DNA from: Bacteroidales bacterium
Lineage (GTDB): Bacteria; Bacteroidota; Bacteroidia; Bacteroidales; JAADJA01
DNA: 64,000 nt
Direction: 5' to 3'
Assembly (NCBI GenBank): GCA_026984135.1
Contig: JALSSR010000035.1
Coordinates: 6,529-70,528 of the forward strand
Shown: in pieces, positions 3,282-58,681 of the stretch
Numbering within the stretch: position 1 is the stretch's first letter
Layout: each line of letters begins with the position of its first letter
The notes under the pieces: generated by a model
What the model saw: the letters and a program-made list of their open reading frames with translations, nothing else
The model's database searches: none
What the model was told of the DNA's origin: nothing
Position numbers and translations under genes: made by a program

Positions 3282-3345
3282 TTGACGGAAAAGATATACT
3301 TTCCGTCAGTTGAGTGACGGAAAAGACATACTTTCCGTCAGTTCA
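3282..3345. repeat. Tandem duplication (period 32 bp) of a perfect hairpin
   Basis: TGACGGAAAAGATATACTTTCCGTCA at 3283-3308 and TGACGGAAAAGACATACTTTCCGTCA at 3315-3340. Each has 9-bp arms, TGACGGAAA/TTTCCGTCA. Confidence 0.85.
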
Positions 3346-10821: not shown

Positions 10822-10875
10822 GTGGTCATTAGGTGGTCATTAAGTAGTCATTAGGTGGTCATTGGTAGTCATTAA
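10822..10875. repeat. Tandem repeat of 10-11 bp units (GTRGTCATTRR), about 5 copies
   Basis: The units read gtggtcattag gtggtcattaa gtagtcattag gtggtcattg gtagtcattaa. Confidence 0.8.
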
Positions 10876-10902
10876 GTATTTATTATGTGGTTCAGCAGCG
10901 AA

Positions 10903-11033
10903 GCAAATGACAGAAAAGCAAATGACAGAAAAGCAAATGACAGAAAAGCAAATGACAGAAAAGCAAATGACAGAAAAGCAAATGACAGAAAAGCAAATGA
11001 CAGAAAAGCAAATGACAGAAAAGCAAATGACAT
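10903..11033. repeat. Perfect 15-bp tandem repeat GCAAATGACAGAAAA, 8 full copies plus a partial ninth
   Basis: Unit starts fall at 10903, 10918, ... 11008, with a truncated unit at 11023. The array ends 34 bp before the purH ATG. Confidence 0.95.
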
Positions 11034-11066
11034 AATCATTTAACAAACAATAAAATTAAACCTCAG

Positions 11067-12595: not shown

Positions 12596-13618
12596 ATGGG
12601 CTTATTTTCATTCTTTACCAAAGATATTGCAATTGACCTCGGAACAGCGAATACCATTATCATTTATAATGACAAGGTCGTGCTGGATGAGCCTTCTATT
12701 GTAGCAATAGAAAGAAACACGGGCAGAATTATTGCCGTTGGCAAAAAGGCAATGATGATGCATGGCAAAACTCACGAAAATATCAAAACCATTCGCCCTT
12801 TACGCGACGGTGTTATTGCCGATTTTCAGTCTGCCGAATTTATGATCAGGGAGATGATCAAAATGATATGGTCGAAAAAGCCGTTGTTTCCGCCGGCATT
12901 GAAAATGGTTATTTGCATCCCCTCCGGTATAACCGAGGTGGAGGAAAGAGCCGTCAGGGATTCGGCAGAGCAAGCAGGTGCCAAAGATGTTAAACTCATT
13001 CATGAACCGATGGCTGCGGCTATTGGAATCGGAATAGACGTTATGGAACCGACAGGCAATATGATTATTGACATCGGAGGTGGTACAAGCGAAATTGCGG
13101 TTATTGCTCTTGGTGGAATTGTGAACAATAAGTCAATCCGGATTGCAGGCGATGACTTCAACTCCGACATAGAAGAGTATATGCGTAAGCAACATAATAT
13201 CAACATTGGCGAAAGAACAGCCGAGAGAATAAAAATCGAAGTGGGTGCGGCTATGACGGAAATTGATAATCCGCCTGAGGAATATGCAGTTCACGGCAGG
13301 GATATGTTGACGGGTATTCCGAAAGAGATAAAGGTAAACTATTCGGAAATAGCACATTGCCTTGACAAATCAATATCAAAAATTGAGGCTGCAGTGCTTC
13401 ATGCATTGGAGATGACTCCTCCGGAGTTGTCTGCCGATATTTTCAGAACAGGTATTTACCTTGCCGGTGGAGGCTCGATGTTAAGAGGCCTTGACAAAAG
13501 GATACATCTTAAAACAAAGCTTCCGGTTCATGTTGCCGAAGACCCGCTAAGAGCTGTTGCAAGAGGTACCGGTATTGCTTTGAAAAATTTCGACAGGTTT
13601 ACGTTCCTTATTAAGTAG
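12596..13618 (+). CDS. mreB: Rod shape-determining protein MreB
   Basis: Actin-like ATPase motifs are present: DLGTANT, DIGGGTSE, LAGGGSMLRGL. Confidence 0.95.
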   Translation: MGLFSFFTKDIAIDLGTANTIIIYNDKVVLDEPSIVAIERNTGRIIAVGKKAMMMHGKTHENIKTIRPLRDGVIADFQSAEFMIREMIKMIWSKKPLFPPALKMVICIPSGITEVEERAVRDSAEQAGAKDVKLIHEPMAAAIGIGIDVMEPTGNMIIDIGGGTSEIAVIALGGIVNNKSIRIAGDDFNSDIEEYMRKQHNINIGERTAERIKIEVGAAMTEIDNPPEEYAVHGRDMLTGIPKEIKVNYSEIAHCLDKSISKIEAAVLHALEMTPPELSADIFRTGIYLAGGGSMLRGLDKRIHLKTKLPVHVAEDPLRAVARGTGIALKNFDRFTFLIK

Positions 13619-22275: not shown

Positions 22276-25200
22276 ATGAAAAAGCTATATCTGTTAACTA
22301 CACTGATTACGATTTTCTTTACTGTTAATGCTGAAAACATCAGATATCCCGATCACTGGGGGAAACAAGGATTATCTGTGGTTTCACAAAACAGTAATTC
22401 CGTAACAATCAATTTTTCAATTGAATCATTTGGTATTTCAAACAAACTGCTCAACGGGAAAACGGTTCAGGAAATATCCCTGTCCGGTGTTTTTCTTCCC
22501 GGGACAGAGGGAGCACCAAATCTTCCGGCAATGAGCCGTTTTATTGCAATTCCCGAAGGAGCAAATGCAGAACTGGCAATTATCAGCTTCAGAAAGGAAA
22601 TTTTTGAGAATGTTGATATTGAACCTTCACCGGTAATTCCCTGGGACACCGAAGAAGGACCGCTGAAGTACAAAAAAGATTATGAGATTTACTCTGAGGA
22701 TGCTTTTTATCCTGATAATCCGTTTCAACTTTCGGAAAGGACGGAATTGAGAGGAGTGGATGCCGTTATTTTGGGAATAACTCCGTTTCAATATAATCCG
22801 GTTACAAAACAGTTAATTGTTTATCGCGATTTAAAGGTTATGATTTCGTTTAAAGGAGGAAATGGTAATTTTGGTGATGACCGGTTAAGAAGTCGTTGGT
22901 GGGATCCCATTCTCAGAGATGCTTTCCTGAACGAAAGTTCAATCCCTGCTATTGATTATAACAAATTGTCATCGGGTAAGGATGAAACAGGTTGTGAATA
23001 CCTTATAATAACTCCTAACGGAGCTGAGTTTCAGCAGTGGGCTGATTCTTTGAAGGTTTTCCGTACAAATCAGGGCATCCTCACAAAAGTTGTTACTCTT
23101 GATGAAATTGGAGGTAACAATGTCAACACAATTGAGAATTATTTGAATGATGCATATAATACGTGGGATATTCCACCGGCAGCCTGCCTTATAATGGCTG
23201 ACTTCGGTACTAATCCCGAGAACAGGATAATTGCACCAATCTGGGATAATTATTGTGCTTCGGATAATATATGGGGAGATGTCAACAACAATAATCTTCC
23301 GGATATTGTGATGGCAAGGATGACCGCTCAAAATGCGGAACAGTTGGAAACTATGGTTACAAAGGTTATTGATTATGAAAGAAATCCGCCATCTTCAGAG
23401 TATTTTTACATGCACCCTGTTACAGCACTGGGATTTCAAACGGAAAGATGGTTTCAAATATGTTCTGAGGCAGTAGCAGGATTTTGGGAAAATGAACTGG
23501 GAAAAGAGACCGTTAGAATCAATAAGACCTATCAGGGAAATCCTATGACTGATCCCTGGTCAACGGCATCTAACACAGGAGTAGTCTTAAATGTTTTCGG
23601 GCCTAACGGTCTCGGGTATATACCTTCTGCCCCTGCACAGGTCGGTTGTACATGGAGCGGAAGCGCCGGTGATGTTACAGACGCCATTAATGCGGGTTCT
23701 TTTATGCTTCAACACCGTGATCACGGTGGTGAAACCGGATGGGGAGAACCCTCTTTTCACAGTAGTGATATCAGCAGCCTGACGAATACTGATTTAACAT
23801 TCATCTGGTCGGTTAACTGCCTGACCGGCAAATATAACCTGTCGGGTGAATGCTTTGCCGAAAAGTTTCACAGATATAAATATAACGGACAAAATGCAGG
23901 TTGTAACGGAATTGTTGCTGCTTCGGAGGTTTCCTATTCTTTTGTTAACGACACATATGTGTGGGGAGCCTATGATAATATGTGGCCTGACTTTCTGCCA
24001 CAATATGGCAGTAATCCTGAATACAGAGGGATATTGCCTGCCTTTGCCAATGCAGCAGGAAAAATATTCCTGTGGCAGTCAAGTTGGCCTGCAAATCCTG
24101 ATAATAAAGAGGTAACCGTTAATCTTTTCCATCTTCATGGAGATGCCTTTATGACTGTATATTCCGAAATGCCGCAGGAACTTACCGTTCTGCAAAATGA
24201 AGTATTACTTGGAGGACAGTCATTTATAACAATTACGGCGGATACGGCAGCATTAATAGGAATAACACTCAATGGCGAACTGATTGGCTCGGCAATTGCA
24301 ACTGGTGAGCCAATTGATATTCCCATACAGCCACTGACACCCGGAGAAGAGATTCTCGTGACGGTTACTAAACAAAACTTTTTCAGATACGAGCAATCCG
24401 TTGAGGTCGTGTCTCCCGATATTCCGTATGTCGTTTATAAATCGCATACTCTTAATGATGAGGCCGGAAACAATGATGGGAAAATGGATTATGGTGAGAC
24501 GATCATGCTTACTGTAGAACTTCAGAATATCGGATTGGTTCAGGCAGATAATGTATCTGCTACATTGAGTGCTGATAATGAATATGTTGAAATTACCGAT
24601 GGCTCTGAGGTTTATGGGAATATGACGGCTAATGCAACAATATCCATGACTGATGCTTTTGCTTTTAATGTGGCTAATGACATTCCCGATGATCAAAATA
24701 TTGTTTTTACCCTTGAAGCGACTGATGGTGCGGAGATATGGACAAGTCATATTGTCTTAAAATCGCATGCTCCCATACTTGAATTCATTGATTTTTCTGT
24801 TTCCGATGCTTCCGGAAATAATAACGGACGGATTGAACCGGGTGAAACCGGTGAGATAACGGTAACAGTTGGGAACAACGGCTCTTCCGATGCATTAAAT
24901 GTCATTGGCGAACTTATCAGCAATAATGAATATATTGAAGTTACTAACTCTTCACAATCATACGGAACGCTTTCCGGAAATTTAGTTGTTCAGAAAACAT
25001 ATACTATCACTGCCGACCCGGATACACCCGAAGGTTTTCAGTCTGTTTTCGATTTTAATATTTCAGCCGATTTGGGAATAACCGGATTTGGTGATTTTTA
25101 TATTGTTATTGGCAGATATACTGCCCTTATCCTTGATCTGGATACCAAGAATTACTCCGGCCCCGGAATTTATGAGACATTTAATGACATGGATATATTT

Positions 25201-26055: not shown

Positions 26056-29000
26056 ATGAAAATTTCATTTAAAAATTTCAGATTTACTGCCCTGCTTTTA
26101 GTGGCAGTCACTTTTTTAGCAACGGCTTTAAAAGCCGATGAAGTGAAGTATGACGACAGTTGGGGAAAGCAAGGCTTTTCCGTAACTACTCAAAAATCGT
26201 CGGGATTGACAATTAACTATTCAATCAACTCATTCAGATTACAAAACAGCCTGATTAACGGCGAAGCAATGACAAAGATCGAGCTTCCTGGCGTTATGCT
26301 CCCAAATAATGAAGGTGCACCTGATTTGCCGGGAACAGGCCGCTATATTGCTATTCCTAATGGTGCAAAAGCTTCGGTAAAAGTTATTGCAACAAGAACC
26401 GAAAAATTCACCGGTGTTGAGGTTGCCCCTTCACCGAGAATTCCCTGGGATACCGAAGACGGGCCTCTGGATTACAATAAGGATCAGGAAATATATTCGG
26501 CTGATCAGCTATATCCTGCTAATCCGGTTATCCTTTCCGAACCTGATGTCATAAGGGGTGTTGATGTTATTATGCTGGGAATTACTCCGTTTCAATATAA
26601 TCCGGTCACAAAAGAGCTCATTGTTTACAGAGATTTTAAAATTGAAGTAACTTACGAAGGCGGAAACGGTCAGTTTGGTGATAACAGACTGCGCAGTCGC
26701 TGGTGGGATCCGATGCTGAAAGATATGATCCTCAACAGTGAATCTCTCGCAAAAGTTGATTATAACAACCTTTATAAAGGTGCAACAAAAGAGACCGGTT
26801 GTGAATACCTTATCATAACTGCAAATAATGCAACTTATCAAAGTTGGGCCGACTCAATTAAAGAATTCAGGACGAAGCAGGGAATACTTACAAAAGTTGT
26901 TACTGTTGATGAGGTTGGAGGAAACAATGTCAATGCCATTGAAAGTTATGTTAATGATGCTTACAACACCTGGGACATTCCACCGGCAGCCTGTCTTCTT
27001 ATCGGTGATTACGGTTCCAACGGGGATATGAATATTATGGCTCCCATTTGGGATAACTATTGTGCTTCCGATAATATTTATGCGGACGTAACTAACAATA
27101 AAATGCCGGATATTGTATTTGCAAGAATACCTGCCGGAAATACATCCGAACTGGAAATTGAAGTAACCAAGTTTCTTAATTATGAAAGAAATCCGCCGAC
27201 AAGCGAATATTTTTATAATCATCCCATCACAGCCCTCGGTTTCCAGACCGAGAGATGGTTTCAAATCTGCTCCGAAGCTGTTGCCGGTTTCTGGGAAAAT
27301 GAACAAGGTAAAAGCACAGTCAGGATCAATAAAACATATCAGGGTAATCCTAACAGCGATCCATGGTCAACTGCAACAAATACGAGTACAGTGGTAAATA
27401 CTTTCGGACCTAATGGTCTCGGCTATATTCCGGCTACTCCCGGACAGGTAAACTGTACATGGTACGGTAGTGCAAGCGACGTAGTAAATGCCATAAACAG
27501 CGGAGCATTTATGCTTCAACATCGTGACCACGGTTATGAGCAAGGCTGGGGTGAGCCCTCTTTCGGAAGTAGTAATATCAACAGTCTAAATAATACCGAC
27601 CTCACGTTTATTTGGTCAATAAACTGTCTTACGGGAAAGTACAATCTGTCGAGCGATTGCTTTGCCGAAAAATTCTTACAACGTACTTCGGGTGGAAATA
27701 ATGCTGGAGCACTGGCCATTGTTGCAGCTTCGGAAGTTTCGTACTCCTTTGTTAACGATACTTATGTTTGGGGTTGCTATGACAATATGTGGCCTGACTT
27801 TTTGCCGACTTACGGAACCACACCGGATTCCAGGGGCGTTTTACCTGCTTTTGCAAGTGCTGCCGGAAAATATTTCCTGCAACAGTCAAGCTGGCCGTAC
27901 AACTCCGGAAATAAAGAAGTTACCTACAACCTTTTTCATATGCTGGGTGATGCTTTTACAACGGTTTACTCTGAAGTCCCGCAGCTTCTTACTGTAACTC
28001 ACGAACCCATATTCTTCTCGGGACTGACCTCTTTTGAAATTACTGCCGACGAAGGCTCCTTGATAGCCTTAACCGTTGATGGTGAAATTATTGGTACCGG
28101 AGAAGGAACAGGATCTCAAATTGCAATTCCCATTGAATCACAAATGCCGCAAAGTACAATTATTGTTACCGTTACAAAACAAAATTACTATCGCTATGAA
28201 TCTCAGGTGGAGGTTCTTCCTCCGACCGGGCCGTATATCGTTAAGGATTCATATTATATAACTGATGATGGTGTTCTTGTAAATGGGGATATGAATCCGG
28301 ACGAGAATATTGAGCTTACGGTTACTTTGAAAAATATTGGAGTTGAACTTGCTGAAAATGTTTCGGTTATGCTTTCTTCAGATGATCCGTATATTACGAT
28401 AACAGATGACAATGAGGTTGCCGGAAATATTTCATCGGGTGCACTGGTAACCATTGAGAACGGCTTTTCCTGGTATGTCCATAACGATATTCCGGATTTG
28501 CATTCCGTACTCTTTACTTTGACTTCAACAGACGGAGACAATACCTGGGAGACTCAGTTCAGTATCAATGCCTTTTCACCTGTTTTGGAAATAGGTGATT
28601 TCATAATTGATGACTCAGAAGGAAACAATAACGGAAGACTTGACCCCGGTGAAACTGCCGTTGTAAAGATAGAAACAACAAATAACGGCTCTTCCTTTGC
28701 ATTGACTACACATGGTATGCTTACGGCAACATCTCCGTTTATAACAATGGAAAACAATACTTACGATATGAATGTAATTGCAATTGGTTCAACCAAAACG
28801 GCGGAATTTACAATTACCGCCGATGCAAATGCACCCAATGGAACTGCATATCTGCTGCAATATAAGGCTCAATCTTTGGGATTTATCGTTGACAATGTCT
28901 ATTCACAAAATATCGGCTTTGCTTCCGAAGACTGGGAGACAGGCGATATGACTAAATATGACTGGCAAACATCCGGCGATGCCGACTGGACAATTTCGGA

Positions 29001-30384
29001 AGAGTCGCCTTACGAAGGAACATATTGTGTTAAGACAGGTGCCATAGGTGACGGAGAAAATACCGCACTTTCAATTAATTATGTTGTGGGAGAGAACGGT
29101 ACAATTTCATTCTACTACAAAGTCTCATCACAGCAAAATTATGATAAGCTGAAGTTTTATGTTGACAATACCGTCAAAGCACAGTGGTCGGGTGAAATTG
29201 ACTGGACACAGGTTACTTATTACAACATTTCTCCGGGAGAACATACTTTTAAATGGGCTTACATCAAAAGTGCAAATACCTCAAGCGGCAGCGACTGCGG
29301 ATGGATTGATATGATCTATCTGCCGGATCCTGTCACTGTTACGGCTTTTGCAGGTGATGATGCTTCCCTTTGCGAAAATGAAGTGTTCAATTGTGAAGGA
29401 TTCGGTTCTCCTTCGGCTACTTTTGAATGGGCTACATCGGGAACAGGAACCTTTGAGGATGTAACCGACCCGGCAACAGTTTATATTCCGGGTGAGGAAG
29501 ATTATCAGTCCGGCTCGGTTGTCCTTACCTTGACTGCTACCGGCTCCGGACAGACTTCAAGTGATGATTTGACACTCTCGCTTCATTATGCTCCTGTCGC
29601 TGAGGCAGGTAATACTCTTGAAGCCTGCAGTAATTCGTTTATTCCTGATGCATTGGCGGAAAACTATCAATCAATTATATGGACAACAACAGGCGATGGA
29701 ACATTTGATGACAACACTTTGGTTACTCCCGAGTATGTTGCAGGCGAAACCGATATTTCAAATGGTGAAGTAACCCTGATAATGACGGTTAACGGATATG
29801 CACCCTGCGGTACAGTGACCGACACATTGGTTGTTTCGGTAACGGCAGCACCCGAAACCTTTGCCGGTGATGACCACGACATCTGTGAAGGACAAACTTA
29901 CACTATTTCCGATGCTCTTGCCGAAAACTATAACGATATTTTATGGGAAACATCCGGTGACGGATCTTTTGACGATGCAACGGTTATGAATCCGGTTTAC
30001 ACTCCCGGTCCCAATGATATTGATGCTGAAGAGGTAACATTGACAATGACTGCATCCGGAAATGGGGTTTGTGAAGCTATTAGCGATGATATGTTGCTGA
30101 CTATCAAATGTCTCGGAATTGATGATAATTATCTTAGCTCTAAAATCTCCGTATTCCCCAATCCAAATACCGGAGATTTTACAATTGATATTGATGCCGA
30201 AATTAATGATCCGGTGAATATCAAAATCCTCAATTCGCTTGGAAATACGGTTTACACTATTGATGATGTTAAAATTAATAACAACAGGAGTGTCCCGCTT
30301 AATATTGATGTTAAGGCAGGGCTATATTATTTATATATTGAAAACGATGAACATTCAATTGTTAAAAAAGTAATTATACAATAA
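26056..30384 (+). CDS. T9SS-secreted gingipain-like C25 cysteine peptidase (paralog 2) with jelly-roll-like domain and three ~75-aa Cys repeats
   Basis: The catalytic region is highly similar to 22276..26025 (HRDHGYEQGWGEP; FIWSINCLTGKYN). The C-terminal half differs. The CTD reads SVFPNPNTGDFTI...GLYYLYI. Confidence 0.8.
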   Translation: MKISFKNFRFTALLLVAVTFLATALKADEVKYDDSWGKQGFSVTTQKSSGLTINYSINSFRLQNSLINGEAMTKIELPGVMLPNNEGAPDLPGTGRYIAIPNGAKASVKVIATRTEKFTGVEVAPSPRIPWDTEDGPLDYNKDQEIYSADQLYPANPVILSEPDVIRGVDVIMLGITPFQYNPVTKELIVYRDFKIEVTYEGGNGQFGDNRLRSRWWDPMLKDMILNSESLAKVDYNNLYKGATKETGCEYLIITANNATYQSWADSIKEFRTKQGILTKVVTVDEVGGNNVNAIESYVNDAYNTWDIPPAACLLIGDYGSNGDMNIMAPIWDNYCASDNIYADVTNNKMPDIVFARIPAGNTSELEIEVTKFLNYERNPPTSEYFYNHPITALGFQTERWFQICSEAVAGFWENEQGKSTVRINKTYQGNPNSDPWSTATNTSTVVNTFGPNGLGYIPATPGQVNCTWYGSASDVVNAINSGAFMLQHRDHGYEQGWGEPSFGSSNINSLNNTDLTFIWSINCLTGKYNLSSDCFAEKFLQRTSGGNNAGALAIVAASEVSYSFVNDTYVWGCYDNMWPDFLPTYGTTPDSRGVLPAFASAAGKYFLQQSSWPYNSGNKEVTYNLFHMLGDAFTTVYSEVPQLLTVTHEPIFFSGLTSFEITADEGSLIALTVDGEIIGTGEGTGSQIAIPIESQMPQSTIIVTVTKQNYYRYESQVEVLPPTGPYIVKDSYYITDDGVLVNGDMNPDENIELTVTLKNIGVELAENVSVMLSSDDPYITITDDNEVAGNISSGALVTIENGFSWYVHNDIPDLHSVLFTLTSTDGDNTWETQFSINAFSPVLEIGDFIIDDSEGNNNGRLDPGETAVVKIETTNNGSSFALTTHGMLTATSPFITMENNTYDMNVIAIGSTKTAEFTITADANAPNGTAYLLQYKAQSLGFIVDNVYSQNIGFASEDWETGDMTKYDWQTSGDADWTISEESPYEGTYCVKTGAIGDGENTALSINYVVGENGTISFYYKVSSQQNYDKLKFYVDNTVKAQWSGEIDWTQVTYYNISPGEHTFKWAYIKSANTSSGSDCGWIDMIYLPDPVTVTAFAGDDASLCENEVFNCEGFGSPSATFEWATSGTGTFEDVTDPATVYIPGEEDYQSGSVVLTLTATGSGQTSSDDLTLSLHYAPVAEAGNTLEACSNSFIPDALAENYQSIIWTTTGDGTFDDNTLVTPEYVAGETDISNGEVTLIMTVNGYAPCGTVTDTLVVSVTAAPETFAGDDHDICEGQTYTISDALAENYNDILWETSGDGSFDDATVMNPVYTPGPNDIDAEEVTLTMTASGNGVCEAISDDMLLTIKCLGIDDNYLSSKISVFPNPNTGDFTIDIDAEINDPVNIKILNSLGNTVYTIDDVKINNNRSVPLNIDVKAGLYYLYIENDEHSIVKKVIIQ

Positions 30385-37527: not shown

Positions 37528-39159
37528 TTATGACTTTTTATACTCAATGGGTTTATTCAATTCCTTTAAAACGGCAGGATCTCTGTCATAAATATCCTTA
37601 TTGAAATATAAATTGTTTTGTCTGTCGGCTCCGGCTGTCCAATATAACAATATGATATCAATGGGTTTTTTAAGGTTTATTCTCGTAGTTTTCTCTGAAG
37701 CCAGAATTTCGTTAATTTTTCCCATATTCCACACATCCGGTTCGTCTATAAGGTTTATTAACAATTGCCATTTTTTTTCAAGCCTGATACAGCCATGGCT
37801 AAAGGCTCTTTTTTCGTTTGCAAAGAGACTTCTTGCCGGTGTGTCGTGAAGATATACGGAATATTCATTGGGGAAAATAAACTTTACCTGACCAAGTGCG
37901 TTATGAGGACCAGCCTTTTGCATTATTGTATATGGAAAATTGCCGGCCGAAAGTTTACTGAAATCTATTGTTGAAGGGTTAATTTCTCTGCCGCTTCTAT
38001 CCATTATTACCATATTTTTTCTGGCGAGATAACCCGGATCTTTTTTCAATTTGGGCAGAGTTTCCTTGGTTGCAATTGAATATGGCAGTGTCCAGGTGGG
38101 ATTAATAATTATATATCTCATCTTCCCTTTAAAAATAGGTGTTTCATGATAATGCTTTCCAACGATCACTCTTGAATAGTAGATGATTGAATCATTTCTC
38201 AGCCTTCTGATATTATAACCTGCAATATTAACAACAAGAAAGTCGTCAGGGAGATGATGCATCACCCATCTTGCTCTTTCCAGATTCACTCTTATCTCGG
38301 CAATCCGCTGTTCTACAGGTATATTCATAGCTGCCAGCGTTCCCTTGCCGATAACTCCATCCTGATTGAGGTTATGTCTGAATTGAAATTTCTTAACGGC
38401 ATTGACCATAATTGAATCATAAACAGTATCGTTTTCGATATTAAAAGATGAAGGATGGTCACCTGTAATAGTAAGATATTTTCTGATAACAGGTATCCTG
38501 TCATCCTTTGCTCCCGGTTTAAGCACATCACCATCGGGAATTTCCGGCCAACCACCATTTTTTGCAAGTTCCCTATAATTTTTTAAACCTTTTCGCAGAT
38601 AATCGTACATGAAATTATTCGGCTTAAAGGAATTAATAACTTCCGAAAGATTTTTATTTTTAAGTGTTGAATAGAGCAGGCTATCACCATTACCGGGTAA
38701 TTTATTAGACGGTACATCCCATCCGGGCCTTATCTTCGACTGATCAACTTTACCCAAAATGAGATGAGATGCATATAATAAAATGCCATCGGTCATCAAC
38801 ATATCAAGATCTGCAAGTTTATATGGGTCGGGATTGCTTTTTACCTCCTCTATCAGCTTTTTTATGTTGTTCAAATGATAGTCATCAGGCATTAAACCTT
38901 CATTATATGAGTCTTCAAGAATGGAAATAACTTCATTGAAATTCTTTTTATCACTCCAGGCAGGATTATAATCGTTTAACTCATAATATTTTGTCAAGAC
39001 TTCCTGAGCATAAAGAATAATTCCGTCGGCTGACACGGATTTTTTTTCACGGCCTGCATTAACCTTTTTATTTATGATTTCATTAATTGACTCGGATTGT
39101 GCAAATTCAAATCCGGAAATAAAAACAACTGACAATAGGATAAAAACAATTTTTTTCAT
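37528..39159 (-). CDS. L,D-transpeptidase, YcbB/LdtD-like, with a PG-binding domain
   Basis: The PG_binding_1 motif is VKKFQFRHNLNQDGVIGKGTLAAMN. The YkuD catalytic motif is VYLHDTP...FSHGCIRL. Confidence 0.88.
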   Translation of the reverse strand: MKKIVFILLSVVFISGFEFAQSESINEIINKKVNAGREKKSVSADGIILYAQEVLTKYYELNDYNPAWSDKKNFNEVISILEDSYNEGLMPDDYHLNNIKKLIEEVKSNPDPYKLADLDMLMTDGILLYASHLILGKVDQSKIRPGWDVPSNKLPGNGDSLLYSTLKNKNLSEVINSFKPNNFMYDYLRKGLKNYRELAKNGGWPEIPDGDVLKPGAKDDRIPVIRKYLTITGDHPSSFNIENDTVYDSIMVNAVKKFQFRHNLNQDGVIGKGTLAAMNIPVEQRIAEIRVNLERARWVMHHLPDDFLVVNIAGYNIRRLRNDSIIYYSRVIVGKHYHETPIFKGKMRYIIINPTWTLPYSIATKETLPKLKKDPGYLARKNMVIMDRSGREINPSTIDFSKLSAGNFPYTIMQKAGPHNALGQVKFIFPNEYSVYLHDTPARSLFANEKRAFSHGCIRLEKKWQLLINLIDEPDVWNMGKINEILASEKTTRINLKKPIDIILLYWTAGADRQNNLYFNKDIYDRDPAVLKELNKPIEYKKS

Positions 39160-39188: not shown

Positions 39189-39196
39189 CAAAAGTA
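39189..39196 (-). promoter_or_regulatory. Bacteroidota-type -7 promoter box TActTTTG (minus strand)
   Basis: The reverse complement of CAAAAGTA matches TAnnTTTG, about 30 nt upstream of the ATG at 39159. Confidence 0.4.
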
Positions 39197-39256
39197 ATAA
39201 GAATATTTCTATCCCACTTTTTTAAGTTTGAGATTTTTACTATCTTCGCCACGTAA

Positions 39257-39379
39257 ACTGGTTCTTATCAGGTTTGCCTGCCTTTGTCGTCAGACAGGCA
39301 ACACAAAGCTGCTTAGAACCAGTTAATACTCGAAAGAAAACAAGTTTGCTTTTTGCAAACCTATTTTCTTTCGGTATAA
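39257..39379. repeat. Dispersed structured element, copy A (two hairpins; possible ncRNA or regulatory repeat)
   Basis: The blocks ACTGGTTCTTatCAGGTTTGC...CTTAGAACCAGTTAaTACTCGAAAGAAA...TTGCAAACCTatTTTCTTTCGGTATAA are shared with 58540..58640. Both stems (CTGGTTCT/AGAACCAG and CGAAAGAAA/TTTCTTTCG) are preserved. Confidence 0.7.
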
Positions 39380-39398: not shown

Positions 39399-41636
39399 AT
39401 GAAAAAGAGTTTATTTTTCATTTTTTTACTGGTTCCGGTATTTTCATTGTTATCTGTTTCACAAACTTATGTTGATCTTACCGACAATATGCAGATAGAA
39501 AGTAATTCTTGGATAATGATAAACCCCGGAAATTACACCATACCCGATATGGGGAATGACGGGCTTATTCAAATTGACGGCAAGGAAAATATCATTATTG
39601 ACGGTGACGGTGTAACCGTTGACGGTACAAACTACCAGGGATATATGATAAAGATCAATAACTCCTCAAACATAAAGATCAGACATTTTGATGCGGTACG
39701 TAATTACTATTATGCGGTTTACATAACCAATTCGGATCATATTCAGATAAATGACAATGATTTTTCGTGGAATAAGGTTGATTCCACCGGCTGGATAAGT
39801 ATCTGGACAGATTATCAGAATGCTCTCGGCGGAGGTGTGATGATGTATCAGTCCGGCAAGGCTCAGATATTTGATAACAATATGAAGTTTCAGAACGACG
39901 GTGTTGCCCTTTATCATTGCGACAGCATATCGGTTCAGAATAATGACTTTTCGTGGAACACCTCCTTCGGGATCAGAATGTATTTTACCGATACTTGTAA
40001 TATTCAAAATAATAACTGCTCTCATGTTAACCGTCCTTTCACCGACCCCAGCGATTGTGCTGCAATATTGTTGATTGTCTCCAATGAAAACTATGTTGCA
40101 TACAATGATTTTTCTTTTTCGGGCGACGGTATTTTCCTTGGGCAGTTTCAGTATTCGCAAATTCCCAACAACAACTATTTCGGATATAACGAATGTTCAT
40201 ACTCGCCGCATAACGCAATAGAAGCAACTTTTGCCGACGGGAACGTTTTTGAATATAATAACTGCAATTACAGCCATTACGGACTGTGGCTCGGATACTC
40301 TTTCAATTCAATCGTAAGGTTCAATGAAATCAACGGGAATCAATATGCCGGAATTGCCATTGACCGCGGGTTTAATAACCTGATGGAAAATAATGAGATA
40401 AAGTATAATCCCACGGGTATCCTGCTTTGGGAAGGCGACCCGATACCGCCCTATCAGGATCAATACTCGCAGGATTATATGATTGCCGGAAATAACATTG
40501 AAGGAAACGGGGTTGCAGTTTCGCTGGACAATACGGAACAGACGGCATTGGTTTCAAACACGATAAACAATAACCGGAACGGGATATACATTACCGGTGA
40601 TGCTGAAAACGACACCTTGATTTACAACGAATTTTACAATACCGCGGTTTATCATATCGAAAACAGGTCAACGGATGATATTCGCGCATACGACAACGGC
40701 TACATTGTTGACGACACGGGAATTATTGCCTGTAAAATATTCGATAAGGAAGATGACCCGGCTTACGGTGAGGTGTTATGGCAACCTTTTTTGCCGGGCG
40801 AAGACCCTCAGTTTCAATACGATCATCCGCAGGATATGGCAGAGCCTGATGCCGTATGGTACGCATATCCCGAAGCTTGCTGGGGGTACGGGGATACTGT
40901 TCCGACTACAGTGGAATGGGATTATACCGAAAAGGTTAAGGGAGAGGCTTCCGTGCATGTTGCAACCGGCAACGGATGGGATATCGGGGTAATGTACAGG
41001 CCTGACGGTGATTCCATTGCTTCGTGGGCATTGACGGAGCAGGATACTCTTGTCTTTTGGATCAAGTCCGTTAATAACTCCCAATATGGATTTCAGTTTT
41101 GTAATGTGGTACTCGGCGATTATTGCGGTAACTATTACAATTTTTCGGCCTCGGCTTCTACCATCCTCAATCCTTCAATAGGCCAATGGAAAGAGATAAG
41201 AATGCCCCTTGCAGGTGTTTGGCCCTGGGCAAGAACCGCCTTCGGTGACATATCTTTTGATGATATCAACTATGTAGAGATACATGCCGATACCTGGGAT
41301 TACGGATTTGAACTTTGGATTGACGGAGTGACCTTTAATCCGCTTACTACCGGTGTTTTTTATAACGGAAAAGAGGCAAGCACTTTCAATGTTAAAATAT
41401 ATCCCAACCCTCTAACAAATATATCGGTTTTGAAATTTTATTTGTCACAAAAAAGTACCGTATCATTATCAATATCGGATGTTCACGGAAGGGAAATAAC
41501 GCTTCTCAATAATATTTTTATGGAAAAGGGTACCCATAAGATTTTGCTGGACAGGAAGAACTTTGCACCCGGTTTTTATACTTACAGACTTTCTGACGGT
41601 AAATTTTTCACACAGGGAAAGTTTATAGTTAGATAG
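39399..41636 (+). CDS. T9SS-secreted right-handed parallel beta-helix repeat protein (NosD/pectate-lyase-like fold)
   Basis: It has a signal peptide, many repeats of the type N.I.NN.......GI.L..S..N.I and the CTD VKIYPNPLTNISVLKF...GFYTYRL. Confidence 0.75.
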   Translation: MKKSLFFIFLLVPVFSLLSVSQTYVDLTDNMQIESNSWIMINPGNYTIPDMGNDGLIQIDGKENIIIDGDGVTVDGTNYQGYMIKINNSSNIKIRHFDAVRNYYYAVYITNSDHIQINDNDFSWNKVDSTGWISIWTDYQNALGGGVMMYQSGKAQIFDNNMKFQNDGVALYHCDSISVQNNDFSWNTSFGIRMYFTDTCNIQNNNCSHVNRPFTDPSDCAAILLIVSNENYVAYNDFSFSGDGIFLGQFQYSQIPNNNYFGYNECSYSPHNAIEATFADGNVFEYNNCNYSHYGLWLGYSFNSIVRFNEINGNQYAGIAIDRGFNNLMENNEIKYNPTGILLWEGDPIPPYQDQYSQDYMIAGNNIEGNGVAVSLDNTEQTALVSNTINNNRNGIYITGDAENDTLIYNEFYNTAVYHIENRSTDDIRAYDNGYIVDDTGIIACKIFDKEDDPAYGEVLWQPFLPGEDPQFQYDHPQDMAEPDAVWYAYPEACWGYGDTVPTTVEWDYTEKVKGEASVHVATGNGWDIGVMYRPDGDSIASWALTEQDTLVFWIKSVNNSQYGFQFCNVVLGDYCGNYYNFSASASTILNPSIGQWKEIRMPLAGVWPWARTAFGDISFDDINYVEIHADTWDYGFELWIDGVTFNPLTTGVFYNGKEASTFNVKIYPNPLTNISVLKFYLSQKSTVSLSISDVHGREITLLNNIFMEKGTHKILLDRKNFAPGFYTYRLSDGKFFTQGKFIVR

Positions 41637-52750: not shown

Positions 52751-52812
52751 TTGTTGGTGACAACACCAACAATAGGCAGAGTGATATAAGTTGTTGGTGA
52801 CAGTACCAACAA
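52751..52812. repeat. Tandem duplication (period 40 bp) of a 22-nt hairpin
   Basis: TTGTTGGTG-ACAA-CACCAACAA at 52751-52772 and TTGTTGGTG-ACAG-TACCAACAA at 52791-52812, located between convergent genes. Confidence 0.8.
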
Positions 52813-52947
52813 AAGGTAGAATTTTTAAATACCGGATATTGCCACGAAGTCACAAAGGCTCGAAGAATTACAAAGTTTAGCTTGTAATAAAGAGAGCATC
52901 TGTTTTTCAAAAATACCTATTCAATCATTATTTTGCCTGTGTGTTGT

Positions 52948-55846: not shown

Positions 55847-56053
55847 TTTCGATTTTTTTGTTATTAATTGTAAATCAATGAATTGAAATCGCTGCGTAGT
55901 TTATCAAAGAGAATAAAAACAGAAAGGTATAATTACCTTATAATGATTTGCAAATTCGGGGGCAAATGTAAACAATTTTTTTCAGTGCCGCGAAATTATA
56001 TTAGGAATAAGTTCATTGCATTAAAACCTGATGCCTTTTGCGGTTCTTAGTGT

Positions 56054-56112
56054 CTTTGAGCCTTAGTGGCAAAATAGCGGAAAATCAACCACAAAGACAC
56101 AAAGGCTCAAAG
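56054..56112. repeat. Inverted pair of the 15-mer CACAAAGGCTCAAAG
   Basis: CTTTGAGCCTTAGTG at 56054-56068 pairs with CACAAAGGCTCAAAG at 56098-56112 (one mismatch). A third copy, CACAAAGGCTCGAAG, lies at 52851-52865. Confidence 0.75.
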
Positions 56113-56194
56113 AAAACACAAGGAAAAACTCACAAAACGGGCTCATCACATTTCCCATAGGGTCAGTTGTTCCGACCTTTGATCTTACCGGCTT

Positions 56195-58522
56195 CTAGAA
56201 CTGAACTCTGTAATTCAGAATAGGTACAAAACCCATTTGAGAAATTGTTTCGACAGAACCTTTATATGGATCATAATAGTCATTGATGACATTCAACCGG
56301 TTGGTAACATTTTGTATGTCAAATTCAATGGTGTGAGTAGCTTTTTTTCTGTTTCTTTTCAGATAAATCTTCAGGTCGAAGCGGATAAAGTCAGGCCATT
56401 GTTTTGAGAAAGCCTGCTTTTAATCTCTCACGGTATAGCCTTCGGCACGTGATTTTTCCAAATCTACCGGTGTTGCCCACTGACCACCCGACCATGTTCC
56501 TTTGATATTTACACCCAATATTCTCTTTTTTGTTCCCGAACCGAAGTGGAAATCTTTCCCGCCCGTCACATTTAAAATATAACGGGTATTAAATCGAGTA
56601 TTTCGCAAAATACCGTCAAGTGCTTTATACTTTGAATCGAACAACGAAAGGGTAACCATATAGTAATATTTTCGTGAAAAATACTTTTCCAGTGTAACCT
56701 CAACACCGTAGTTTCTGCCTGTTCCTTTATTGACAAGATGCCTGTTGGTATATCCGAAACTGTAATTCAGCATCGAAAAACTGCTTGTATCACTGTTCTC
56801 AACCGGCACATCAAACAGATGCTGATAGTACAACTCCACTTTCAGGAACAGATTTTCATTCAGCAGATTTTCATATCCTGCAACGAAATGTGCCGCTTTA
56901 ATAAAATCGAGCTCTTTGTTGGGCAAAAATGCCGGTCCATCATGCACAGGCTCTTGTACGAAATAGCTTGATAACGATTCCATTTTACTGTGGAGTCCCA
57001 ATCCGATATTCAATGCCTGCGATACGGCAAATTGCCATTTCAATCCTATTCTCGGTTCAATGGTGTAATTTCCGTTAAGGAAAAGATACATACTGTGCAG
57101 TCCTGTTATGAGAGTGACGTTTCTGTTGAATCTGTGTTTCCAGTCAACGAATGATTCGAGAAGTGTTGTGGAGCCGTTTATGTTAACATCGGGAATCAAT
57201 TTTTCATTTTCGTAATCATATCTGTCGGAAACCAGATCATACAGCATAAAACTGCTTTGAGTACCTATTCTCAGCAAATTGGCTGCATTTATTTTTTTAT
57301 TGAAAACCATTGATATTTTCGATGTTTTATATCTCAGATCATCTATGGCTTTTGAAATAAAAATGTTGTTTGTATCGGGCTCCTTGAAGTTCCAGTTGTT
57401 TCCCGATGCAGTGAATGCAACTATTGTTTGCAGGTAAGCGCTTTGATTGAAAAAGAACAGGTTTTTAAGTCCGATAACACTCATATCCGTACGGTAATCA
57501 TTGGTAAAATGATTTTCCTCTTCGTGAACATTACTTACTCCTCCGATTCCGAAAAAGCTGAATGTTCCGAGATGTTTTGTGGGAGCACTGATTTTAAATG
57601 TGAGGTCTTGAAAGTAGGGTATGGCATCACCCACAAGGTTTATCCCCAGAGCTTTAATGGCAGCAAGAGATGAAAAGCGGTAATTTACGAGATAGGACGC
57701 CGGGTTTTTGCGGCTGAAAGGCCCCTCGAAGGTGCAGTCGAGTCCGAGGAAACCGGCCTGAAGTGAATACTCTCTTTGTTGGTTGTTTCCATTACGCAGT
57801 TTCATATCAAAGACACCGGAGTATGCATTGCCGAATTCTGCGGGAAAAGCGCCTGTAAAAAAGTCGGAATTTGACAGTACTGCGGCATTAAGAATACTCA
57901 GTCCGCCTCCCGAAGAACCCTCCTCGGCGTAATGGTTGGGATTGGGTATGTCAAGACCTTCCAACCGCCAGGCCATTCCTTTGGGTGAGTTGCCGCGGAT
58001 GATAATGTCGTTGGAGCCGCTGGGGTTCATAGAAACACCGGCATACGAAGATACTGCCCTTGCCACGTCGTTGATAGTTCCGGCGAGATGATCCATACCA
58101 TCCACATTGAATTTCATTACACTCACCGTTGCCATCTTGTTCAGTGCCTCGGCTTTATTCACATTGGCTTTTACAACAACTTCCTTAAGATTTTGTACCG
58201 TTTCGGAAAGATAGATATTCAAGACCTTTTCCTTGCCGGAATTAAGTTGTATGTTGCGTAAGGTCACCTCATTATAGCCGAGATAAAAAACTTTGATATT
58301 ATAAATTCCTACGGGAAGTTTACCAAAGGTGAAATATCCGTTTTCGTCGGTTGTTGTTCCGATGAGCGGGTCCGAACCGTCAATTATCAGGTTTGCGCCC
58401 GGCAACGGGATACGCGAATCTTTATCCATAACCCTGCCTCTGACGGTTTGGGTTATCTGCTGGCCATATCCGGCTATTGCAACGGAAAACAGAAAAAATA
58501 TTATTATTCCTTTGCTTTTCAT
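56195..58522 (-). pseudogene. TonB-dependent receptor (CarboxypepD_reg-like N-domain + plug + barrel) interrupted by one in-frame TAA at 56420..56422
   Basis: The track ORF ends ...AEGYTVRD*. The same frame continues KQAFSKQWPDFIRFDLKIYLKRNRKKATHTIEFDIQNVTNRLNVINDYYDPYKGSVETISQMGFVPILNYRVQF* (stop at 56195-56197), which is a typical terminal barrel strand ending in Phe. Confidence 0.7.
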
Positions 58523-58539
58523 CTCCGGAGTGTTTTTAT

Positions 58540-58640
58540 ACTGGTTCTTGACAGGTTTGCAAAAACAAACCTTCTTAGAACCAGTTATACTCGAAAGAAA
58601 TCAACCAATAAAGTTGCAAACCTGATTTCTTTCGGTATAA
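58540..58640. repeat. Dispersed structured element, copy B (two hairpins)
   Basis: ACTGGTTCTTGACAGGTTTGCAAAAACAAACCTTCTTAGAACCAGTTATACTCGAAAGAAATC...GATTTCTTTCGGTATAA. It lies between the stop of 58682..59788 and the start of the TonB-dependent receptor gene. Confidence 0.7.
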
Positions 58641-58681
58641 CAAAATTAATAAAAACAATCCGAAAAACAAGCAACTGTTTT

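Follow-up and report, generated by a model that had tools for sequence, protein, structure and literature searches.

A probable family of double-hairpin miniature transposable elements inserted at TA in an uncultured Bacteroidota lineage

[quoted passage not shown] RUP of Streptococcus pneumoniae, for example, is a 107-bp MITE with contiguous TIRs of 9 bp that inserts at TA and for which the transposase of IS630-Spn1 is the proposed mover (PMC2229807). The REP, REPIN and BIME sequences are hairpin-forming extragenic repeats that are often found downstream of genes or between cistrons and can occur as inverted doublets (PMC3733652). This report concerns a double-hairpin element present twice in 64,000 nucleotides of a Bacteroidales bacterium (GenBank assembly GCA_026984135.1, contig JALSSR010000035.1, positions 6,529 to 70,528 of the forward strand; this whole stretch is referred to as the window). 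A first-pass annotation of the window had described two look-alike two-hairpin elements and had left three options for them: a small RNA, a 5' leader or terminator-antiterminator module, or a miniature structured repeat of REP or MITE kind. Both elements are real, and their limits are refined here to 39256-39376 on the + strand for copy A (121 nt; 112.5 bits against covariance model R1) and 58539-58637 on the + strand for copy B (99 nt; 113.7 bits).

The element most probably represents a new family of bacterial MITE, non-autonomous and 99-121 bp long, which inserts with duplication of a TA target in an uncultured member of the Bacteroidota. The copies are multiple and dispersed, with defined ends and TA flanks; one orthologous locus preserves the empty site, and sister genomes lack the element. 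The class of the transposase and any effect on expression are inferred. With the described MITEs the family has in common its small size and lack of coding capacity, dispersed copies of high identity, TIRs (imperfect ones here) and a target duplication, seen at one empty site.

Copies, ends and an empty site

Additional copies, a search for which had been proposed with the first description, were sought by exact-pattern scans with the 20-base junction between hairpins I and II. This pattern has no match in 185,579 GTDB species-representative genomes and none in viral contigs. In JGI metagenome contigs it has 10 matches, nine of which are true full copies on nine Ga0256841 contigs; the remaining one (L003) falls by chance within coding DNA that is rich in GC. 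The family therefore comprises at least 11 full copies (two in the window and nine in the metagenome) with lengths of 98-121 nt, plus one truncated copy, a 26-nt left end in L010. Identity among copies is 85-100% within the element, versus about 30% (background) in the 60-nt flanks, the exception being the partly common flanks of L008 and L012. BLAST of the element against plasmids returned nothing, and against phages only chance 28-nt matches (E = 1). Copy B is 100% identical to the L005 copy and 99% identical to the L010 copy, at three unrelated loci, and this near-identity points to a recent spread of the family. ENA assembly ERZ27262647, which carries the window contig, contains the L005 locus as well, so the 11 copies very probably come from one organism or population and probably all belong to one genome. 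The best named matches of the neighbouring proteins are in metagenome-assembled genomes (MAGs) labelled Bacteroidales, Bacteroidota or Chlorobi. Two Logan contigs (run SRR7968113) stop 26 nt inside copy B and 31 nt inside copy A, as expected where a repeat exceeds the assembly k-mer in length.

Two of the metagenome loci have further repeat structure. The L008 and L012 copies are 100% identical and share their left flank over about 90 nt and their right flank over 52 nt (L012 7300-13700; L008 1880-2125); the element is thus embedded in a larger repeated unit there. The same 6-kb stretch of L012 (7300-13700) contains small open reading frames (ORFs) of 117-225 aa without a Pfam match, lying between several repeated segments of 74-258 nt. 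In L010 (7741-7766 and 7960-8151), the truncated left end is followed by unrelated DNA and then by a duplicated piece of the upstream 1109-aa gene, from its C-terminal region, a layout that suggests a rearrangement at an element copy.

Within the window, the long words common to copies A and B are confined to these two loci in all 64 kb, as first described, and shuffled sequences contain none of them. Pairwise alignment of the two copies gives six identical blocks (ACTGGTTCTT, CAGGTTTGC, CTTAGAACCAGTTA, ATACTCGAAAGAAA, TTGCAAACCT and TTTCTTTCGGTATAA), similarity drops abruptly at both edges, at TAC and GTA, and a general repeat scan of the window likewise pairs the two copies (families D13 and D20). 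Three subtypes are distinguished across the family. Subtype A-short, the basic form, has five copies of 98-99 nt. Subtype A-long has three copies of 121 nt, including window copy A, that carry a 22-nt, GC-bordered nested palindrome. Subtype B has three copies of 99 nt, including window copy B, in which the interiors are altered and hairpin II has a replaced inner 5' arm. The longer palindromic insert noticed earlier in copy A is this nested palindrome (CTGCCTTTGTCGTCAGACAGGC, 39278-39299, + strand), which recurs in L004 and L006 and is thus present in 3 of the 11 copies. As a separate repeat the 22-nt nested hairpin was rejected, being found inside the element only.

The family begins with TAC in all copies but copy A, which reads AAC...GTA with the first base mutated, and ends with GTA in all. 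Both flanks are TA in 9/11 copies; L008 and L012 have TT at both flanks, and L009 has TT and TA. At copy A, the left TA (39254-39255) and right TA (39377-39378) are read as the two copies of the target, a model supported by the empty-site alignment of the L005 copy; at copy B, the flanking sequence is TA at 58537-58538 and at 58638-58639. The base preceding the left TA is T at 7 of 10 independent sites and the base following the right TA is A at 8 of 10, which suggests T-TA-A as the preferred target. The TT...TT arrangement of L008 and L012 is the one non-palindromic case, and it fits a direct duplication better than an inverted repeat.

If the right 24 nt are reverse-complemented and set against the left 24 nt, the two ends agree at TAC.G, differ over a mismatched stretch, and then match over 11-12 bp, (T)CAGGTTTGCAA. 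This 12-bp inverted repeat lies 13-24 nt from each end, at equal offsets. The first-pass annotation had noted a word in inverted orientation in the two halves; the word, AGGTTTGC, belongs to this subterminal repeat. In copy A, the left core CAGGTTTGC (39269-39277, + strand) and the right core GCAAACCTA (39355-39363, - strand) are equally far from their ends, and the right core differs by one mutation from the family form GCAAACCTG. In copy B, the left core is again CAGGTTTGC (58552-58560, + strand) and the right core is GCAAACCTG (58616-58624, - strand). Because the right-hand GCAAACCTG is invariant in subtype B despite the loss of its partner in hairpin II, it suggests a candidate site for a sequence-specific protein more than a role in RNA pairing.

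The L005 copy sits between pnuC and an AAA_28 kinase gene, and the pnuC reading frame enters the element (...AAC CGT TAT ACT GGT TCT TGA) to give a 212-aa protein. Relatives with 89-90% identical PnuC (NCBI GCA_964408535.1 and GCA_054028835.1; ENA ERZ27262694 and other samples) keep the pnuC-AAA_28 pair where the contig extends far enough (L028, L029, L033); their PnuC is 208 aa long, the intergenic gap is 60-68 nt, and the element is absent from these loci. Three excision models of L005 were aligned to the relative L029. Removal of TAC...GTA together with one TA produces a gap-free junction (AAACCGTTAAAGTATTGAG versus AAACCATTAAGGCATTAAGG) and restores a TAA stop at the orthologous codon, whereas removal of TAC...GTA only, or of TATAC...GTATA, requires a 2-nt gap. 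L005 and L029 together show the filled and empty sites of an insertion that duplicates TA.

The sister lineage (L027-L033, e.g., L030 3454-3720) has a different repeat at the site of the L005 element, GGCATTAAGG(N)ACATTAAG...CTTAACTCCTTAATGG, which overlaps the pnuC stop, is tandemly amplified in L030 and alters the C-terminus of PnuC in L033. The 3' end of pnuC looks like a hot spot for repeat insertion, to judge from these sequences.

For the window copies themselves, the neighbourhood of YkuD and M15 peptidase genes beside copy A is preserved in a sister MAG (GCA_030592565.1) and in a relative from ENA, in both without the element upstream of YkuD. The divergent neighbour of these YkuD orthologues is a different gene; absence is shown, with no base-by-base empty site for copy A. 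An empty site for copy B was not obtained from the best reference genomes, which have about 40% identity on the adjacent receptor-like protein, nor from metagenome homologues of that protein (69-72% identity), which are not syntenic. Conservation in relatives, which had been named as a check on the element, was found at no orthologous position, and covariance model R1 detected no diverged copies at the relatives' loci.

Folding and gene context of the window copies

Both copies fold as two tandem hairpins on either strand. Predicted RNA folding energies on the + strand are -53.3 kcal/mol for copy A and -39.8 kcal/mol for copy B (z = -7.8 and -8.4), and on the - strand -60.5 and -44.2 kcal/mol (z = -9.4 and -9.3); the corresponding DNA folds on the + strand have energies of -35.2 and -25.3 kcal/mol (z = -9.1 and -8.7). 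Each half holds the complement of its own end, and two hairpins are therefore formed rather than one long stem. Hairpin I has the layout TAC-TGGTTCT...AGAACCAG-T-TA and hairpin II the layout TAC-T-CGAAAGAAA...TTTCTTTCG-GTA. In copy A, hairpin I extends over 39256-39324 (+ strand; RNA and DNA folds) with the closing stem CTGGTTCT/AGAACCAG, and hairpin II over 39326-39377 (+ strand) with the closing stem TAC-T-CGAAAGAAA/TTTCTTTCG-GTA. In copy B, hairpin I is folded at 58542-58583 and hairpin II at 58584-58641 (both + strand), the latter with a 19-nt interior loop that results from the replaced inner 5' arm of subtype B. Folded hairpins measure 42-69 nt, and the stems of I and II are unlike (CTGGTTCT versus CGAAAGAAA). 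Neither hairpin was found alone in about 180 kb of this organism's DNA. Neither window copy holds an ORF of at least 60 aa entirely of its own, although shadow ORFs run across copy B. A strand-specific RNA was considered and rejected: the minus strand folds better, but the G-U/A-C asymmetries in single copies favour no strand consistently and the copies point either way with respect to genes.

Each copy lies between genes or reaches a stop codon, and the genes beside the copies are ordinary chromosomal ones (tRNA synthetase, peptidases, transporters, pnuC). Relative to co-directional genes the orientation is mixed, with L005 in the sense direction and copy B, L004 and L010 antisense; the remaining copies lie between convergent or divergent genes. 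The surroundings of both window copies agree with the initial description. Copy A is flanked by genes for a YkuD L,D-transpeptidase (37528-39159, - strand) and a beta-helix/NosD protein (39399-41636, + strand), the latter with a Por_Secre_tail domain and initially described as a type IX secretion system (T9SS) gene. Copy B lies 17 nt upstream of the ATG (58522) of a CarboxypepD_reg/TonB-dependent-receptor-like gene (56420-58522, - strand) and follows the stop of the preceding gene at a distance of about 41-45 nt.

Candidate Bacteroidetes-type -7 boxes, recognised by motif only, occur beside both copies. One (TAAGTTTG, 39223-39230, + strand) lies 25 nt to the left of copy A and reads into it towards the beta-helix ATG at 39399; another (TAATTTTG, 58641-58648, - strand) lies 3 nt from copy B and reads through it towards the receptor-like ATG at 58522. 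As each copy is placed between a candidate -7 box and a start codon, both window copies probably came to lie in 5' leaders by insertion and are probably transcribed as leader RNA, in opposite orientations. Copy A is upstream of the candidate -7 box of the YkuD gene (TACTTTTG, 39189-39196, - strand; motif), and in relatives L035 and L036, too, the YkuD start is preceded by a -7 box. The idea that the element itself supplies a promoter was rejected, most copies having no TAnnTTTG box.

The receptor-like gene next to copy B, taken to the full length of its frame (56198-58522, - strand), has an in-frame TAA at codon 701 (56420-56422). Homologues of the protein are 777 aa long, continue in the same frame to about 56198 and are 72% identical across those 777 aa. 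The window gene has probably become a nonsense pseudogene. An assembly error at codon 701 is unlikely because the same 700-aa product is found in NCBI, JGI, Logan and ENA sources.

Proposed mobilisation and rival explanations

The element would insert into TA, with T-TA-A favoured, in AT-rich intergenic DNA, and the TA would be duplicated. Mobilisation in trans is most likely, by a transposase whose gene lies elsewhere in the genome; this would be a DDE enzyme that recognises the 12-bp subterminal repeats as its binding sites and cleaves at TAC/GTA. Duplication of 2 bp, TA, typifies the DDE transposases in the IS630/Tc1-mariner superfamily, and HUH/Y1 enzymes (IS200/IS605, RAYT) are not known to duplicate their target; it is for this reason that mobilisation by a DDE enzyme is favoured. 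A copy located in a leader or intercistronic RNA would add two very stable hairpins and may alter mRNA stability, read-through or translation, so that an effect on the expression of neighbouring genes is a plausible by-product of insertion.

Several points weigh against a TA-inserting MITE. TA is palindromic, and most copies therefore cannot separate a target duplication from an inverted terminus. The empty site is a single case (n = 1), at a metagenome locus outside the window, and the origin of the 11 copies in one genome is something that we infer from shared assemblies. The TIR is imperfect, with 12-16 of 24 positions matching and positions 4-12 mismatched between the ends, although it is comparable to the contiguous TIRs of 4-12 bp listed for several bacterial MITEs (PMC2229807). 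The roughly 180 kb examined of this organism yielded no autonomous element whose ends match, and Pfam identified no transposase in the window genes outside 13.7-27.5 kb or in ten ORFs near metagenome copies. The hairpins, moreover, are intact in all subtypes and include one pair that is changed on both sides; the ability to form them was maintained among the founder copies, as it would also be by an RNA or single-stranded-DNA role.

That the element is more than selfish DNA, either through an unusual enzyme or through co-opted copies, is unlikely. In the first case, an uncharacterised transposase would recognise folded, self-palindromic ends with a bulged-T TAC foot and yet duplicate TA. In the second, copies between a promoter and a start codon would have become regulators at the RNA level, with alternative pairing of the four CAGGTTTGC words acting as a switch; candidates would be the copies upstream of the T9SS beta-helix gene and of the receptor-like gene and the copy at the pnuC-kinase junction.

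A quite unlikely alternative is that the element is REP/REPIN-like or derived from IS200/IS605, its hairpins being moved as folded single-stranded DNA by a tyrosine HUH transposase (RAYT/TnpA). Each end does form an independent stable hairpin on single-stranded DNA, both hairpins have a TAC foot and a bulged T, in each the CAGGTTTGC word occurs as an inverted pair, in the manner of a REPIN doublet, and families with self-complementary TIRs associated with tyrosine transposases have been described (PMC3733652). The empty site, however, favours a 2-bp TA duplication, where transposition of IS200/IS605 type is not known to duplicate a target. Nor do the ends carry a GTAG or CGTC tag, and hairpins of the size reported above exceed the 20-40 nt expected. 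The left and right hairpins of IS200/IS605 resemble each other, and those of this element differ in stem. No Y1 transposase or RAYT gene was seen in the window outside 13.7-27.5 kb or in the scanned ORFs near other copies.

The reading of the copies as functional structured RNAs, i.e., small RNAs or cis-acting leader or intercistronic regulators that are paralogous modules with hairpins under selection, is very unlikely. In its favour are the very stable folds on both strands, the fact that both window copies shortly precede start codons and follow candidate -7 boxes, and the compensatory change described at the outset in hairpin II, which proved real: the pair beside the conserved stem is A-T in copy A and T-A in copy B, and the same double-sided change recurs across the family (A-U in 6 copies, U-A in 5). 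A covariation test, which had likewise been proposed, gave little to add to this pair, as 23 of the 30 consensus pairs in the 11-copy alignment are invariant and 1 covaries. The covarying pair does not track the subtype split, and it therefore reflects differences between founder copies or exchange between copies rather than repeated selection. Substitutions private to single copies mostly break pairs, with wobbles kept inconsistently on one strand or the other, a pattern that fits neutral drift of copies after insertion. Conservation of structure is accordingly weak evidence for an RNA role. Rfam at gathering thresholds has no match in the whole window, in keeping with the original statement that no named RNA family was recognised; with a permissive E-value, the two loci match generic hairpins, mostly microRNA precursors, at 10-29 bits against gathering thresholds of 35-119. 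Also unfavourable are the presence of copies in both orientations relative to their presumed host transcripts, the lack of a shared internal promoter motif in most copies, the absence of the element from the relatives' orthologous loci and the spread of subtype B although the inner stem of its hairpin II is lost. A terminator, as had been suggested, is not supported: no T-run follows either outer hairpin on either strand, and a terminator scan picked out only the inner stem of copy A's hairpin II.

The three original options thus fared differently. The REP/MITE-like one stands, with at least 11 dispersed copies, TA flanks, an empty site, insertion in both orientations and absence from sister loci. 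The small RNA and the leader or terminator-antiterminator module are not supported, given the lack of an Rfam family, the single covarying pair of 30, the mixed orientation and the absence of orthologous conservation; what survives of the leader proposal is the remark on position, since both copies are close upstream of a start codon. Chance resemblance, or local duplication of one intergenic segment, has a negligible probability: just two copies are visible in the 64-kb window, but nine further full copies with unrelated flanks on other contigs and the sharp similarity edges at TAC and GTA refute it, and the shared words have no counterpart in shuffles.

Other repeats and comparison with described families

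A second intergenic repeat family, of about 176 nt, occurs at 56000-56175 of the window and at L006 7701-7875 (88% identical). It is built of CACAAAG-type words and their inverted partner (CTTTGAGCCTTAGTGG...CCACAAAGACACAAAGGCTCAAAG), is also present in the left flanks of the L007, L008 and L012 copies, and is often found within about 15-40 nt of the double-hairpin element; Logan contig L002 ends inside it. Between a MacB/FtsX-type permease gene and purH (10822-11065), about ten 15-nt tandem units (AAGCAAATGACAGAA) follow three 11-nt units (GTGGTCATTAG), and the ENA contig starts inside the 15-nt array, at about window position 10930 by coordinate offset. Adjacent paralogous genes with DNA identity of 72-80% and a spacing of 3804-3807 nt account for the similarity of 22611-24188 to 26415-27995; the second paralogue (26056-30384) has Peptidase_C25 (gingipain-like) and Por_Secre_tail domains. 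Palindromic direct-repeat pairs are located at 3283-3343 and 52751-52820, with TGACGGAAAAGA.ATACTTTCCGTCA occurring twice and TTGTTGGTGACA..ACCAACAA twice. The TTGTTGGTGACA..ACCAACAA kind resembles TTGTCGGT.TTGTCACCGACAA in L012 (about 12690-12730 and 13290-13330), and these short palindromic pairs may be further small hairpin repeat families of the same genome.

Recognition of the double-hairpin element as a MITE heads off the misannotation of strong, recurring double hairpins as a new small RNA or riboswitch-like leader. It also adds a MITE family in a poorly sampled Bacteroidota lineage, for which the closest species-level references are only about 40% identical in the receptor protein beside copy B; such elements appear to be sparsely described in the Bacteroidota literature. 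The element has practical consequences, as it breaks short-read assemblies and alters protein ends (four residues are added to PnuC). Stable hairpins of about 100 nt placed in leaders and intercistronic regions are a likely source of expression differences between strains. The TAC/GTA ends and the 12-bp subterminal repeat provide a handle for finding the transposase responsible.

By analogy, the closest described element is RUP. Like RUP, the family presented here is about 100 bp long, non-coding and intergenic, with highly similar copies, insertion at TA, short TIRs and stably folded transcripts (PMC2229807). The two differ in that they have no sequence similarity and occur in different phyla, that the TIRs of RUP match a known insertion sequence whereas none with matching ends was found for this element in the sequence examined, and that RUP is described as one long stem-loop rather than two tandem hairpins. 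The Correia elements (NEMIS) of Neisseria likewise have TA termini and target duplication, insert near genes and are co-transcribed as hairpins; they also come as a short and a long form, the difference being an internal segment, with lengths of 107 and 155 bp in Neisseria (PMC2229807) and 99 and 121 nt here. In Correia elements, however, the 24-26-bp TIRs pair with each other and the long form has an IHF site, whereas in the present family the ends have only TAC and the 12-bp subterminal repeat in common and each half pairs with itself; no sequence similarity connects the two.

As a hairpin-forming extragenic repeat, often downstream of genes or between cistrons, the element is also similar to REP, REPIN and BIME sequences (PMC3733652). 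It differs from them by the missing GTAG/CGTC tag, the longer hairpins, the evidence for TA duplication and the constant occurrence of the two hairpins together as one unit, and by the fact that no RAYT was seen in the scanned window genes and ORFs near copies. BOX of S. pneumoniae and ERIC of enterobacteria are intergenic repeats of about 100-130 bp that are modular or imperfectly palindromic (also PMC2229807). Variable internal modules and strong predicted RNA folds are features that they have in common with the present family; their sequences and lineages are unrelated to it, and BOX is not known to have a clear TIR or target duplication, in contrast to the TAC/GTA ends and TA flanks described here. 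The unusual trait of this family is that each half pairs with itself, forming two side-by-side hairpins instead of one long stem.

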